This document shows, in pieces, positions 4,968 through 11,740 of a stretch of DNA of 34,303 nucleotides (position 1 is the stretch's first letter; each line of letters begins with the position of its first letter). The translations under genes and the position numbers were made by a program. The stretch comes from a virus (lineage: Duplodnaviria > Caudoviricetes). The stretch lies in the IMG/VR virus record IMGVR_UViG_3300032260_000012, positions 1-34,303 of that record, one strand, 5' to 3'. Below the pieces are notes generated by a model, which did not search any database, had not been told where the DNA came from, and saw only the letters and a program-made list of their open reading frames with translations.

Positions 4968-5112
4968 AACTTTCTGTTAACATTTAGTTAACTGTTAACC
5001 TTCTGTTAACACTTGGCTAACTGTTAACTCTCTGTTACTATTTAGTTATCAGTTAACTTTCTGTTATCTATTAGTTAGCGGTTAGCCTTCTGATTACTTT
5101 TAGTAAACCAAC
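4968..5112. repeat. Five degenerate 29-bp tandem repeats; probable partition centromere (parS/parC) and par operator
   Basis: Units start at 4968, 4997, 5026, 5055 and 5084 (e.g. aactttctgttaacatttagttaactgtt; aaccttctgttaacacttggctaactgtt); array ends at the parA RBS. Confidence 0.85.
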
Positions 5113-5129
5113 CGACAAGGAGTTAAAAA

Positions 5130-5834
5130 ATGCCTACCGTCGTAATAGCGTCAAGCAAAGGTGGCCCAGGGAAAACAACGGTCGCCACATCATTAGCCTC
5201 AGAGCTTGCTAGACTGGGTGAAATCAAAAAAATGGGTGTTACCCTTATTGATTCAGATCCTAACCAGCACGCGGCTAAGTGGGCGCTTAAAGAGGGTTGC
5301 CCTAACAATATTACGCTTGTTCGGAATTCAACAGAAAAAACGATCATCGACGATATAGAAAATGCGGAAGAAAAAACGGCCCTTGTTGTGGTAGACACAG
5401 AAGGCACCGCGAGTATGACGGTTTTGAATGCCGTTAGTTTTGCTGATTTGGTTATTATACCGTGCCAAGGCGCACAAGATGACGCTGACGAAGCACTTAA
5501 AACAATTGATCTTATAATGCGCTGCCGACGAAGCTCACGACGAAACATCCCGTTTTCAATACTCTTTAACCGAACTCATCCAGCAATCGAACCAAAGGGA
5601 CTCAAGCACATTGTGAGTGAATTTAGTATATTAGGAATCGATGTTTTTAAAACTTCTATAGTAGAGCGTGAAGCGTTGAGAACTGTTCGATCTGTTGGCG
5701 GAACAGTCAATGATTTGACGCCTAAAGATGTTTCAGGTGCTGATAAAGCAGCGGCAAATTCAAACGCATTTGCACTCGAAGTAATCAGAAAATTGAATGC
5801 AATAGATTTGGGTATAGGTGTTTCTAATGACTAA
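5130..5834 (+). CDS. parA: ParA-family partition ATPase (short type Ib / VirC1-like)
   Basis: Deviant Walker A SSKGGPGKTT, LIDSDPNQ, Walker B VVVDTEG, ADLVIIP; no N-terminal HTH; AAGGAG RBS. Confidence 0.92.
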   Translation: MPTVVIASSKGGPGKTTVATSLASELARLGEIKKMGVTLIDSDPNQHAAKWALKEGCPNNITLVRNSTEKTIIDDIENAEEKTALVVVDTEGTASMTVLNAVSFADLVIIPCQGAQDDADEALKTIDLIMRCRRSSRRNIPFSILFNRTHPAIEPKGLKHIVSEFSILGIDVFKTSIVEREALRTVRSVGGTVNDLTPKDVSGADKAAANSNAFALEVIRKLNAIDLGIGVSND

Positions 5835-6183
5835 AAAACGGGCACCACTTGGAGCGGGGCTTGATTCTGATATAGGGAATTTTGCAGGCAGTGAGGGGAA
5901 AACTAAAAAACTACCTATAAACCAAAACGAAGCAAGGAATATTTCGAGAGAGGCCGGTTTTCCCAGCAGGGAAGCCCCAAAAACACGCGACCGTCGTAAC
6001 GTCTCACCATATGCGTTAAGTAAGGGATACAAGGTGCGTTCTGGTATGCATGCTTTAATCATACGTATAAGCGATGAGTTAGGCGTCAAGGATCATACAA
6101 TGCACGAACGAGCCCTTTTAGCCCTAATCGAAAAAGACTGTTCTGATGATTTAAAGGCCGAATTTGAGAGGCTGACAAAATAA
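5827..6183 (+). CDS. Small ParA partner / centromere-binding protein
   Basis: Overlaps the parA end; KRAPLG N-terminus, AGFPSRE motif and an RHH-like C-terminal region, as in plasmid stability/partitioning determinants. Confidence 0.7.
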   Translation: MTKKRAPLGAGLDSDIGNFAGSEGKTKKLPINQNEARNISREAGFPSREAPKTRDRRNVSPYALSKGYKVRSGMHALIIRISDELGVKDHTMHERALLALIEKDCSDDLKAEFERLTK

Positions 6184-8088: not shown

Positions 8089-8505
8089 TTAATATATTGT
8101 CATGCCTAGCCTATGGCTTATGGCTGGACATTCGATATCTTTTCTAAGTTCGCCACCACTTGTTGTGTATTCTTCACACACAGGACATCGGTTAAGCCTA
8201 GCAACTTTTAATCCAGTTTTAACTTTCAACAATAATGGATGATGTTTAAGGCTCTTAAATATGTCTGAATCACTTAGTTTGTCCGTATTTAACAACGGGA
8301 CACTTACCAACATATCGTATGAGCTAATAACCGCATACTGTATGCAGTGCTCTTTCTCGCGAAGTTCTCCGAGCATGGCGCGGACATTGGGTTTAATCGT
8401 TTTTTCTTCTTCGTCGGTGAGGAATATTCCGCGCATTTCCTTTCGATTTAGCTTTGCCATCTTTTCTCTAAAGAGAATGCTTTTTTTGGCTGGAGTCTGT
8501 GGCAT
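8089..8505 (-). CDS. Hypothetical protein, basic N-terminus and CxxC...C C-terminus
   Basis: First gene of leftward cluster; AGGGGA RBS. Confidence 0.6.
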   Translation of the reverse strand: MPQTPAKKSILFREKMAKLNRKEMRGIFLTDEEEKTIKPNVRAMLGELREKEHCIQYAVISSYDMLVSVPLLNTDKLSDSDIFKSLKHHPLLLKVKTGLKVARLNRCPVCEEYTTSGGELRKDIECPAISHRLGMTIY

Positions 8506-8605
8506 TAGTTTTCCCCTGTTGGTTGTCGTAACGTGTAGTAGTGTGACTACGATACGCGCAACTGTAAAGGGTAAGCTAGCAATAAATTGAAAGTATAGGA
8601 AAATC

Positions 8606-8625
8606 CACTGTAAAAATAAGCAGTT
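8606..8625. promoter_or_regulatory. Candidate LexA (SOS) box
   Basis: caCTGTaaaaataaGCAGtt: CTG-N10-CAG at 8608-8623, AT-rich core, one mismatch to CTGT-N8-ACAG; abuts a possible -35 TTGTAA at 8624. Confidence 0.55.
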
Positions 8626-8644
8626 GTAAATGTTTTAGAATTGA

Positions 8645-8712
8645 TTAATATAGAGGGATTCCGGACTCAAACAAGGGTGGCAGCCCTCTCGTCCGGTCAT
8701 AGCTGAATATGA
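8645..8712 (-). ncRNA. Candidate antisense RNA (about 65-70 nt, RNA I/Inc-like)
   Basis: Lies downstream of a near-consensus minus-strand promoter; folds CCGGAC...GTCCGG hairpin (8661-8696) with GCUGCCAC apex; ends approximate. Confidence 0.55.
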
Positions 8713-9106
8713 GGGTCTAGTATAGCGTAATGCTATCTATTTCTCAATGATTTGCTTCTAAATCCCCTCTATAAATCCATCTATTTTTCAGGCTGCCCCG
8801 TGCGGGGTTCACAACGTTGGCGGTTATCCAAGTGGCGAATGTCGAAGGACTCTAAATCTAATTAGAGCGGGCAAGTGCTGCCGTAACACCCGCGACCATT
8901 GGCGCAGATAATATCTGTGTGGCCAAACTACTTCACGGATGAATACCCACGATAGCCATTATTCGTGCAAGGCTCAACAGGCCGAAGTGTTGAGAGGGAA
9001 CCAATCTACGGGCATGATTGGAGCGGGCTGACCGCAAGGGAACCGAAAGTCCTATACCGCTTTGCTATGCGGTTTGGTGAAAACCAAGGGATATAAGGTG
9101 CCTTTT
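8655..9106 (+). ncRNA. Candidate long structured RNA (RNA II/primer-like replicon RNA)
   Basis: No ORF of 60 aa or more; at least 9 hairpins (e.g. 8796-8807, 8850-8867, 8867-8893, 8973-8994, 9001-9021, 9056-9074, GAAA-capped about 9075-9087); pseudoknot partners 8679-8685 and 8791-8797. Confidence 0.55.
8719..8747 (-). promoter_or_regulatory. Sigma70 promoter for the antisense RNA
   Basis: Minus strand reads TTGAGA-17 bp-TATACT. Confidence 0.7.
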
Positions 9107-9225
9107 TACATCAAAATTTAAAACATTAAAATATTCTAATATTCTAATATTAGAATATGCTAGCAATTTTATTTAATTATAAATTGTGTTTAACTGCGTT
9201 AATGTAATAATTAATTTATATAAAT
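9107..9225. other. Very AT-rich tract with AATATTCT repeats; possible origin unwinding element
   Basis: aaatattctaatattctaatattagaatat and neighbouring A/T runs directly after the structured region. Confidence 0.45.
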
Positions 9226-9239
9226 ACGGAGATACGTGA

Positions 9240-9512
9240 ATGCCACCCGACAGAGAAACTGAAAAAAGAACATTAGTCATGGAAATTAAAGGAACAAAAA
9301 GACAAGCTAAATTATTATCGCAGGCGTTAGAAAACAAAGAAATCCTAGAGATGGACCCAGAAGAGGCTTTACAATATTTCGAGTATCTTTTTTTACTTTC
9401 TTTGAGTGCTTTATATTCAGAAATCGGACCGGAAAATGTGAGAAGGACTTTTGAAGACGCATTAGCCATAGTTGAAAAAAGCATTCCTTCTGCGGAAGAA
9501 ACACAGCACTAG
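9240..9512 (+). CDS. Hypothetical protein
   Basis: GGAGA RBS; first gene of the rightward cluster. Confidence 0.55.
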   Translation: MPPDRETEKRTLVMEIKGTKRQAKLLSQALENKEILEMDPEEALQYFEYLFLLSLSALYSEIGPENVRRTFEDALAIVEKSIPSAEETQH

Positions 9513-9514
9513 AG

Positions 9515-10036
9515 GTGGCGATTGGGGTAATGGCAATGCTAAATAAAAAATATATTAACCGAATGGATTACGATGGCGCGGTAGGGTGGTTGGTAAGGTT
9601 TCCGCGCAATCATAAGAAAGATCCGCGTAACTTTGAACGCAAATTTTTTGCGGACAGTATGTTTGAAGATAGGGCAGCTGCCAAAAAAGCGGCCTATATT
9701 TTTCGTGACAAGCGCCTAGCACAGACAAAACAACTTCATTTGTTAGATAAAAAACTCCACCGTACAAATAACAACTGTGGAGAAAAGAAAAGCAACAAGA
9801 GAAATACCAGCGGCATTATGGGTATCGAGCGTAACGAGCTTAATTGGAAAGCCTTTGGGGCAATTAACAAAAAAACATGGACGAAATCATTTAGCGTGGT
9901 TGAACATTCAGAGAGAGGCGCTTTCAAGGCGGCTTGTTATGAACGGTTTAATCGTCATGGACCTTTGAGAGTTTCAATAAAAGTTGGTAACTTCCCATGT
10001 CAAATTCCCGTTAAATACGTAAAAATTAGACCATAG
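9515..10036 (+). CDS. Tandem AP2-domain DNA-binding protein without HNH
   Basis: Two AP2-like units: GWLVRF...ERKFFAD...AAKKAAYIFRDK and NTSGIMGI...WKA...TKSFSV...GAFKAACYER; true start may be ATG 9530 or 9536. Confidence 0.65.
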   Translation: MAIGVMAMLNKKYINRMDYDGAVGWLVRFPRNHKKDPRNFERKFFADSMFEDRAAAKKAAYIFRDKRLAQTKQLHLLDKKLHRTNNNCGEKKSNKRNTSGIMGIERNELNWKAFGAINKKTWTKSFSVVEHSERGAFKAACYERFNRHGPLRVSIKVGNFPCQIPVKYVKIRP

Positions 10037-10046
10037 GCCTGAATAT

Positions 10047-10397
10047 ATGAACATCCTAAAAACACACAGAAAGATTGTCGATCTCCTTGAAGTTACTGGA
10101 CGAGGGAAGGGCAAAACACCCTCCATAGAACAAATGGCTATGGTGCTTCTGATCTATCGCAAAAAGGCGACATCAGCCGCAGAAATAGCCGAAGTAATGA
10201 AAAAATCAGTGCCTTCTGTACGATCAATGGGGTATAAATTAAGCGATGGTAAAACAACCTCTTTTGATTCAGCTTATGGATTTATTGAATTAATACCATC
10301 TAGTAAGGTAATGCTTATCGACCCTGCAGTTAGATATCGTTTAACCCCGGACGGCAAAAAGTTTGCCCGAATAATAGCGAAAAGCTTTGGTGATTAA
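10047..10397 (+). CDS. Winged-helix (MarR-like) DNA-binding protein
   Basis: QMAMVLLIY...SAAEIAEVMKKSVPSVRS...YRLTPDGK. Confidence 0.65.
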   Translation: MNILKTHRKIVDLLEVTGRGKGKTPSIEQMAMVLLIYRKKATSAAEIAEVMKKSVPSVRSMGYKLSDGKTTSFDSAYGFIELIPSSKVMLIDPAVRYRLTPDGKKFARIIAKSFGD

Positions 10398-10745
10398 TAG
10401 AATGTCTATTCGCAATATACATAGATCACTATACAAACAAATACCTTCATTCAAGTGTAAAGCAGGCTGTAATGATTGTTGTGGCCCCGTGCCATTGTCA
10501 AAATATGAAGCCAATAGACTTGGTATTCCAGGCGCAGTTATAACGCCTATAAAGAACTCTACCTGTGGATTTGCCGGTGAAGATGGTTGCAGTGCATACA
10601 AAAACGTCCGTTTATGTGTCGTTTATTTGGCACGGTTGATACACCTAGATTAACCTGTCCTCATGGGAATAAGCCCCATAAATTACTTTCATCAATTAAG
10701 GGGGACCAATTAAGACGGGAATATATAGGTATTGTTGAAAAGTAA
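10390..10745 (+). pseudogene. YkgJ-family (CxxxCxxCC) Zn/Fe-S cluster protein, frameshifted
   Basis: CKAGCNDCCGP...C...CSAY in frame 1; the family motif RPFMCRLFG...CPHG continues in the -1 frame from the A5 run at 10600-10604 to TAA at 10745. Confidence 0.75.
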
Positions 10746-11017
10746 GTTGCTTTATTTTTCAAGACTAATTAGGATGGATATCGGAATTAGCAGGTACTAG
10801 ACAAATCGTATACAGTTTCGTCGGGGTCTAGAATTATTCCACTTGGACCGTTGGTATTGAGTAGCAGCTCCTCGCCCCCGCCTGGGGTTTCAGTTATTCA
10901 TTCCAACGGTCTATTTACTCTACAAGAGATATGCAATAGATCGTTGGGAGATGCGACGCGGCCATGATCGTGCCTACATGACCCCCAACGAGGTGGCTGA
11001 GTTTCTCGTCCGACGAT

Positions 11018-11740
11018 CTATTTTATATCTCTTAGATGCGAAAGAATCACACCAGTATCATGTTCACCAACGCCAGCTAACATAAATTCCTCATGGTTCC
11101 GCCAAGCCAGCCACATGAGCTTGATTTGCTCCAACAATGATAACTCGTCTCCAAGCCTCAACGAATCCCCTTTATGAACATAACCATATTTTTTAAATGG
11201 TAAATCCGGCACCGGATCATTTGACATGCACACCCGCAGATAGTTAACGTTCCGCGCCTGTTTCATTGAAAACGTCCGATCATAATAGTCCTGGGTAAAT
11301 ACCATCGGTTGAGCGAACGTAATACAATCAATCTCTTTGAATAAATGAGCGTAAAACTCTACAAACGCATCGGCCATGGCACCGCCCCGGCTCATCCCTG
11401 TTATCAAGATCTTTTCCGGGTTCAATTCAATCAACCTATCCATGATCTGTTCTGCCATTAGTTCCATGCTGATTTTCACACCCTGGTTCACGCCCCCATC
11501 GGTCTCATGGTACTTGTAGAAATTCAACGCCCATTGGAACAAATCCTTTGTGCCTGGGAACGCCACAACAGCTCTATCCCCCTCGTGGATGATGTAACAC
11601 GCATCACCCTTTCCCTTTAACAATGGGTCGATAATCGTAAGTGAATCACCAAACAGACTTTGAATTTCGTCGGGGTCTTTGTGTAGCACCACATCGGCGT
11701 ATCGTAAGGCATCAAGAAGTTCGGGCTTAGTAAAATTCAT
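11018..11740 (-). CDS. Class 3 lipase / alpha-beta hydrolase
   Basis: VVAFPGT, nucleophile elbow ITGMSRGGA, TFAQP, NDPVPDLP, GYVH and C-terminal His (GEHD). Confidence 0.85.
   Translation of the reverse strand: MNFTKPELLDALRYADVVLHKDPDEIQSLFGDSLTIIDPLLKGKGDACYIIHEGDRAVVAFPGTKDLFQWALNFYKYHETDGGVNQGVKISMELMAEQIMDRLIELNPEKILITGMSRGGAMADAFVEFYAHLFKEIDCITFAQPMVFTQDYYDRTFSMKQARNVNYLRVCMSNDPVPDLPFKKYGYVHKGDSLRLGDELSLLEQIKLMWLAWRNHEEFMLAGVGEHDTGVILSHLRDIK

Follow-up and report, generated by a model that had tools for sequence, protein, structure and literature searches.

A phage-borne structured RNA element with an antisense-type control end, a candidate RNA-primed replication origin

Comparative sequence analysis indicates that a gene-free gap in the genome of a tailed phage encodes a real, uncatalogued structured RNA family, whose element carries an antisense-type control end in lambdoid phages and is most likely a replication origin, of neither the MRB nor the ColE1 type. 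With a rough probability of 0.45, the element would be an RNA-primed origin that is antisense-controlled in plasmid prophages and uncontrolled in RSP15, a T4-like Ralstonia phage. The stretch of DNA under study (hereafter the window) comprises all 34,303 nt, positions 1-34,303, of IMGVR_UViG_3300032260_000012, an 84% complete virus record, and coordinates are those of the window unless another record is named.

Results

The gap and its facing promoters

The non-coding gap (8506-9239, 734 bp) lies between two divergent operons and is bordered by an ORF starting at 8505 on the minus strand and an ORF starting at 9240 on the plus strand. Where a first-pass annotation had seen about 600 bp without an ORF, the entire gap holds only ORFs of at most 43 aa and the ends of two shadow frames. 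None of these small ORFs is kept in a related phage (G002, described below), no conserved coding frame is found between the two, and neither a Rep gene nor iterons were found in the element region. In both phages, an ATG about 12 bases past the predicted start of the antisense RNA opens a frame, of 21 aa in the window (8635-8700, minus strand) and of 98 aa in G002 (L004 452-748, minus strand), in each case without a ribosome-binding site; these antisense-strand frames are probably a by-product of RNA conservation. Near a partition cassette, a long structured RNA combined with an antisense RNA at its 5′ end would suit a type I toxin-antitoxin locus or a Rep-mRNA leader (hok/sok or CopA/CopT type), but with no ORF kept between the window and G002 and no fixed downstream gene, this extremely improbable reading is largely refuted.

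The first-pass annotation had further placed in the gap a rightward promoter (TTGTAA at 8624, TAATAT at 8646), a near-consensus leftward promoter and, opposite the RNA made from the latter, a first hairpin, all of which are present at those positions (Table 1). G002 keeps the boxes of the rightward promoter as TTGTAT-16-TAATAT and those of the facing promoter as TTGAAA-17-TATACT, with altered spacers; for the facing promoter, TATACT and TTGARA thus stay 17 bases apart in both phages while the spacer between them drifts. The promoter scan scored the facing promoter, did not list the TTGTAA-16-TAATAT sense promoter, and did list a promoter-like site at 9105-9132. The loop of hairpin 1 (8679-8685) has an alternative partner at 8791-8797 in both the window and G002. 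The minus strand showed no intrinsic terminator that could end the antisense RNA, either at 8600-8712 in the window or in G002, and the length of about 65-70 nt that had been proposed for this RNA is therefore unsupported.

Downstream, more than nine hairpins can be drawn up to about 9095, consistent with the at least nine previously counted to about 9105. The AT-rich repeat tract said to follow them stands as to its composition, the first 60 bases being 85% A+T (top 0.1% of the window) and G002 being AT-rich at the same place, yet its palindrome (9131-9158) is not conserved in G002.

Table 1 Positions of predicted features in and near the gap
Feature	Position	Strand	Remarks
Plasmid-type partition cassette	4971-6183	+	repeats, ParA and small partner
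Predicted sigma-70 promoter of long RNA	8624-8651	+	TTGTAA-16-TAATAT; start ~8658
Alternative -10 of long RNA	8636-8641	+	conserved TAGAAT; start ~8648
5′ segment predicted to pair with 8762-8772 if RNA starts at ~8648	8650-8659	+	matching pairing predicted in G002
Hairpin 1, target of predicted antisense RNA	8661-8696	+	34/43 bases of 8658-8700 kept in G002
Facing promoter	8747-8719	-	TTGAGA-17-TATACT; scan 10 of 12; predicted antisense RNA start ~8712
Pyrimidine-rich, poorly conserved linker	8751-8790	+	11/40 bases kept in G002
Entry segment common to G002	8791-8866	+	hairpin 8796-8807 with compensatory change; further short stems
Core stem P2	8867-8893	+	equivalents in distant copies matched by eye only
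Core stem P3	8900-8925	+	equivalents in distant copies matched by eye only
P4 stem with large conserved loop L4	8933-8968	+	L4 predicted to kiss P6 and P8a loops
P5 hairpin	8973-8994	+	two-sided changes in 5/7 pairs
P6 hairpin	9001-9021	+	conserved 9-nt loop; two-sided changes in 5/6 pairs
P7 local hairpin	9023-9035	+	fits all copies
3′ three-way junction	9023-9092 region	+	P9 (9049-9092) closing P8a (9057-9072) and P8b
AT-rich tract after core	9101-9239	.	candidate unwinding element, or merely control region of 9240 operon

A copy of the element in a complete phage

A search with the primase protein led to a complete 62.5-kb phage (G002) carrying a copy of 8613-9098 that is 79% identical and stands between different flanks. 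Identity is 22/53 upstream of the sense promoter, 34/45 over it (8613-8657), 30/50 over the facing promoter, 259/308 over 8791-9098 and 70/142 in the AT tract. Among contigs of run X1 compared with the window, a second phage contig matched 8661-8696 and 8822-9098 and almost none of the neighbouring genes; it has gaps where G002 has them and was counted as the same phage, not as an extra member.

In G002 the element has an inverted orientation with respect to the homologues of the 9240 and 9515 genes and is aimed at the end of a convergent ORF; it is therefore not the leader of these genes. A role solely as the leader of the 9240 operon, which had been named as one of several outcomes that would undo the proposal of a replicon, is thereby set aside.

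Other parts of the neighbourhood are kept to varying degrees. The 173-aa protein of 9515-10036 has no family match, returned itself as the sole match in a search, and is 44% identical to a G002 protein (L021 3957-4499); by eye we take it to resemble two AP2-type DNA-binding domains. The operon adjoining the element also encodes a MarR-like winged-helix protein (10047-10397) common to G002, which was considered as a Rep and rejected on this resemblance. Beyond the end of the 10587 ORF, a short stretch is kept (10734-11017; G002 45719-45920; 74% over 112 bases), of which 10760-11017 is non-coding and lies between convergent operons; it is possibly a further element of that position. A class 3 lipase beside the endolysin (11018-11740) is 63% identical in G002 and possibly a lysis accessory. 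On the other side of the gap, the protein of 8089-8505 has no relative in viral contigs. G002 also encodes an Acb2/Tad1-type anti-defence protein (L019 16178-16402; Pfam PF24729, E 3.5e-17) and an 892-aa terminase large subunit (L019 7573-10251) whose matches are split into two stretches, possibly by an intein or other insertion.

Partition cassette and replication genes

The window encodes an O-like initiator, a primase zinc-finger protein, Erf, an exonuclease, SSB, ParA with a small partner, and podophage-type structural genes. The cassette consists of four roughly 29-bp repeats (4971-5085), ParA (5130-5834), whose nearest relatives in the plasmid collection are 50-62% identical, and a 121-aa partner (5818-6183) without a Pfam or PHROG family. 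It closes the early leftward-type operon, a position generally occupied by the integrase in lambdoid phages.

In G002, this pair of ParA and partner lies about 1.1 kb from the element, and the repeats differ. Neither phage integrase (0/2 records; control 14/14) nor Rep3_N (0/5 records; control 3/14) was matched in G002, and comparison of 68 ORFs with PHROGs and 63 with Pfam brought up no further Rep or recombinase; most ORFs are without a family, and G002 may encode a Rep of an unrecognised type. With its complete genome, its partition system and no detected integrase, G002 fits a phage-plasmid lifestyle. This call applies to G002 only, as the missing part of the 84% complete window could hold an integrase or Rep.

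The ParA type itself is no predictor of the RNA, because no new RNA copy was found at ParA-linked loci (best 80 of 185 metagenome matches; 11 viral). A P2-like phage fragment (G001, L003 1-1927) has the same ParA and partner with short repeats upstream, and no RNA copy within 76% of its genome.

Seven copies in five phages

The 3′ core (~8860-9100) is present in seven copies: one each in the window, G002 and two further phages (G007 and G008), and three dispersed in RSP15, an Ackermannviridae record found as a match to the G002 copy. These seven copies in five phages represent about four independent lineages, and remote copies may be missed by searches without a covariance model. BLAST of the window region had given no real match in phages or plasmids except a 36-base match to RSP15, which later proved real. 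A pattern of the conserved loop gave 45 viral matches (3 known copies, 2 new ones and 40 chance matches); the new copies score E 3e-20 (G007) and 1.3e-5 (G008), values to which the pattern itself adds. Earlier DNA patterns had returned known copies in 1/21, 1/2 and 3/16 viral matches, the remainder being chance, and none of the 10 matches of a DNA pattern in the genome collection was a true copy. No match was found among 72,556 plasmid records with four of the seven copies as queries, and sequencing runs yielded no listed carrier of the RNA.

The RSP15 copies lie at about 8.1, 48.6 and 106.6 kb on one strand and are ~70% identical. Each is intergenic and sits directly behind a TTGACA promoter scoring 11 of 12, with a second promoter after it; the genes downstream are uvsY, a small ORF with a helicase, and the sliding clamp. 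In the third copy (L169 1740-1835), the 3′ junction carries two additional hairpins, marking where inserts are tolerated by the core. The G008 fragment includes primase and antirestriction genes, and in it the element precedes the terminase genes. A divergent transcription boundary lies directly at 6/7 copies.

The window and G002 carry about 200 extra 5′ bases relative to the core, which hold hairpin 1 and the facing promoter. A 5′ extension bearing a facing promoter was seen solely in three lambdoid phages, the window, G002 and, weakly and by eye, G007, in which it differs, comprising two hairpins and a facing TTGACT-17-TAATCT (TAATCT serves as a -10 in ColE1). On the minus strand of G007, a hairpin with a run of five T behind it would yield an antisense RNA of about 120 nt; this terminator and the facing promoter, both seen by eye, were not called by the scan. 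The RSP15 copies are without the extension: the two minus-strand sites that the scan listed, neither at a 5′ end, score 9 of 12 (within one core) and 10 of 12 (beyond the 3′ end of a different core). No facing promoter was seen in G008. The core is not solely a plasmid-state element, because three copies occur in the T4-like RSP15 without the antisense part.

A+T content is high over the 60 bases that follow the core in the three extended copies (top 0.1%, 1% and 3.8% of sequence windows), weakly raised in RSP15 (a level reached by 13-17.5% of sequence windows) and not raised in G008. Taken as a T4-type layout, a promoter and then an AT-rich element, this makes the pattern strong in three of the seven copies, weak in three and absent in one; a following promoter would equally explain the AT-richness.

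In G007, a fragment of a lambdoid siphophage, the element is placed between a Cro-like ORF (labelled so by eye; no family match) and a divergent early operon. No repressor gene lies between this ORF and the divergent early promoter (L196 919-1740), the structured RNA filling that place; a tRNA gene follows the element (L196 2137-2209), and no ParA was found within 72% of the genome. This arrangement, together with transcription of the element towards an operon in 6/7 copies, would fit an RNA-based genetic switch, i.e., antisense-controlled attenuation or antitermination of the neighbouring operon, for which the P1 C4, P4 CI and HK022 put RNAs are analogues. We regard such a switch as improbable, given that the G002 element faces a convergent gene end, that a second strong promoter follows the element in RSP15 and G007, and that the sole C4-type Rfam match lies far below threshold (19.6 bits vs 46.7, E 0.56).

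A folded core with covarying stems

Folding energy does not exceed chance (z is -0.80 over 8650-9110 and -1.72 over the antisense piece), and the structure is considered real because covariation supports it. In an alignment of the seven sequences, 28 pairs in six helices are paired in 89.7% of cells and 16 of them change on both sides, levels reached by 0/500 shuffles, while slid controls are 31-45% paired; the pairs were picked by hand from the same seven sequences, and kinship and the self-derived structure inflate these covariation values. Each sequence pairs better with its own strand than when strands are swapped between sequences, with own versus swapped values of 0.84/0.47 for P4, 0.94/0.54 for P5, 0.98/0.43 for P6 and, in 6/7 sequences, 1.00/0.81 for P8a; P5 and P6 were located by a best-hairpin search, a method that favours own pairing.

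Two contacts are predicted to hold the core together through L4. Three L4 bases pair with the P6 loop in 7/7 copies, with two-sided changes in 2/3 pairs. A further four L4 bases could pair with the P8a loop in 6/7 copies; as these bases do not vary, this contact is only predicted. A long-range helix (8821-8827/9029-9035) was rejected, as it fits the window and G002 alone while P7 fits all copies.

G-U pairs outnumber A-C pairs 9:3 on the plus strand, which favours an RNA read from that strand. A selfish mobile element, spreading as structured RNA or single-stranded DNA into intergenic gaps, would account for the inversion relative to neighbours in G002, the three dispersed, ~70% identical copies in RSP15 and the patchy distribution across unrelated phages. 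The copies have no common flanking repeat, reverse transcriptase or transposase beside them, a promoter is positioned at the start of each, and the 9 to 3 excess points to RNA, leaving this explanation highly improbable.

The same fold bears on the main rival to an origin, a trans-acting phage RNA: a compact structured scaffold, a decoy for a host defence or processing factor, or a ribozyme, made early in infection, with the three RSP15 copies serving dosage and the antisense RNA silencing it in lysogens. Invariant loops, covarying stems and loop-loop contacts would suit such an RNA, as would the form of each RSP15 copy as a stand-alone unit between two promoters, the predicted pairing of the two ends of the core, and the presence of the element in phages with three different replication systems together with its absence from the plasmids searched. 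We nevertheless consider it less likely than an origin: no common protein partner is seen beside the copies, no intrinsic terminator marks the 3′ end in the window, and plasmid-state replication of G002 would fall to the O-like initiator, normally kept off by lambdoid repressors.

Comparison with known RNA origins and RNA families

The first-pass annotation had likened the gap to ColE1 and MRB origins. The architecture, a long structured RNA with a conserved facing promoter, stands; membership in either family does not. The window gave no Rfam match at the gathering score, with sub-threshold matches only in 8500-9300, and the element in six homologue loci likewise gave sub-threshold matches only; none of PAGEV, ARRPOF, RNAI, ROOL, GOLLD and C4 was matched above its threshold. 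A profile of the window and G002 found nothing at E<10 in pSIO1 and pPHDP10, the two MRB plasmids compared (pB1067 itself lies outside the collection searched), whose origins match each other over 462 bp at 75% as a control.

With ColE1 RNA II/RNA I the element shares facing promoters, alternative 5′ pairings and the lack of a Rep gene. ColE1 origins depend on RNase H and DNA polymerase I, their primer RNA is refolded by antisense binding, and ColE1 RNA II relies on a G-rich tract for hybrid formation; no conserved G-run was found in the element copies, where the longest runs are 3 to 5 bases, not at a kept place, and G skew is 0.0-0.15. The element further differs from ColE1 in having no Rfam RNAI match and in the covarying loop-loop contacts of its own core.

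According to the available portion of PMC3035462, an MRB origin comprises a ~465-nt RNA II and a ~68-nt RNA I over its 5′ part, and MRB plasmids are recognised by a conserved ~110-bp RNA I region and a ~490-bp origin homologous to pB1067, with two complementary transcripts, autonomous replication and RNA I-based incompatibility as further marks; that portion names ColE1 and MRB alone as RNA-initiated plasmid families. Judged by this description, the element resembles the pB1067 type in its ~500-bp ORF-free region, its predicted long RNA of ~450-465 nt, its predicted small 5′ antisense RNA and the consensus promoter for the latter. Unlike the element, MRB RNA I is there described as ending at a terminator hairpin with A/T runs, and MRB origins as residing on Vibrionaceae plasmids, whereas the element resides in phages; its core also exists without the antisense part.

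ARRPOF, PAGEV and GEBRO are, in the accessible text of PMC5737381, structured motifs of 223-349 nt on average linked to plasmid replication, and ARRPOF lies within a stretch devoid of genes that pKH9 requires to replicate independently of Rep. By that account the closest parallel, as a structured motif associated with Rep-independent replication, is ARRPOF; the element differs from all three in having no Rfam match, in being phage-borne and in its antisense part. ROOL and GOLLD, large ornate phage-linked RNAs in the excerpts seen of PMC5737381 and 10.1101/2024.12.08.627333, are likewise intergenic and rich in predicted tertiary contacts, with no function assigned there, and differ in that the element has no Rfam match, a smaller core and an antisense partner. 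Group I/II intron, RNase P and tRNA-like readings, considered by eye, have no Rfam support. No description of the family was found in the literature searched, of which the supplements of PMC5737381 and PMC10690425 could list an unnamed candidate; in six supplementary files of PMC10690425 there were no matches to the record numbers, RSP15 or the loop motif.

R-loop origins are a known start mode of T4-like phages, T4 having three active origins near transcription switches, one of them ori(uvsY), which need ~100 bp and share no sequence motif (PMC3016281, as far as its available sections go). In those terms, the element resembles T4 oriF/ori(uvsY) and oriG in its promoter, the predicted use of its transcript as primer and, strongly in three of the seven copies, a downstream AT-rich element, and RSP15 resembles T4 in having several copies per genome near transcription switches, one just upstream of uvsY. 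The element copies differ in sharing a 250-370 nt structured core and sigma-70 promoters.

Discussion

From the sequence, the covarying stems, the kept boxes of both promoters, the seven-copy family and a ParA in G002 without detected integrase or Rep, we infer every functional step of an origin mechanism, which would run as follows. Host RNA polymerase would make a transcript of ~450 nt from 8648-8658, the last 250 nt of which would form the compact core held by loop-loop contacts. The 3′ end of this RNA would stay on the template beside the AT-rich tract and be elongated as a primer in the manner of ColE1 and T4 oriF. Antisense RNA binding to hairpin 1 would alter 5′ folding (8679-8685 against 8791-8797) and block primer formation, a switch-off that would provide copy-number control when the prophage lives as a plasmid. 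RSP15, with three bare-core copies each behind a near-consensus promoter, would have uncontrolled early origins.

We favour an RNA-primed origin because the layout matches the MRB description in the part of PMC3035462 at hand; because a long RNA with predicted antisense control lies beside a partition cassette in the complete G002, where neither integrase nor Rep was detected; because the element is not tied to a downstream gene; because the three extended copies have AT-rich bases behind the core; and because the RSP15 copies sit at transcription switches and R-loop origins are known in T4-like phages. Counting against it are the lack of a match in the plasmids searched, of MRB likeness in sequence, of a G-run, and of an antisense terminator in the window and G002. 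G007, without ParA and with the RNA in the repressor's place, fits a regulatory role equally, and the O-like initiator present in the window, G002 and G007 could serve both states. The predicted pairing of the core ends in RSP15 better suits a free RNA than a primer, AT-richness is weak in RSP15 and absent in G008, and blocking the antisense-covered bases in folding gave no consistent core refolding across three copies. T4 origins, on the evidence of the sections of PMC3016281 used here, share no motif, unlike the element copies. A still broader proposal, which we hold doubtful, is that the copies represent a new RNA-primed origin family with a kissing-loop core, unrelated in sequence to ColE1 and MRB, which travels as a module among unrelated phages; with the antisense end it would serve a lambdoid plasmid state, and in stripped form it would be a multi-copy early origin in a T4-like phage.

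If the element is an origin, it would constitute a third, phage-borne RNA-initiated family beside ColE1 and MRB, the two named in the portion of PMC3035462 available; it would explain the persistence of Rep-less, integrase-less prophages and yield a new small replicon; and a structured origin RNA common to a T4-like phage would bear on what defines origins in the T4-like group. If the origin proposal is wrong, the element would still be an uncatalogued structured RNA of 250-450 nt with a natural on/off partner. Even then, the cultured phage RSP15 with its three copies makes the function of the RNA testable.
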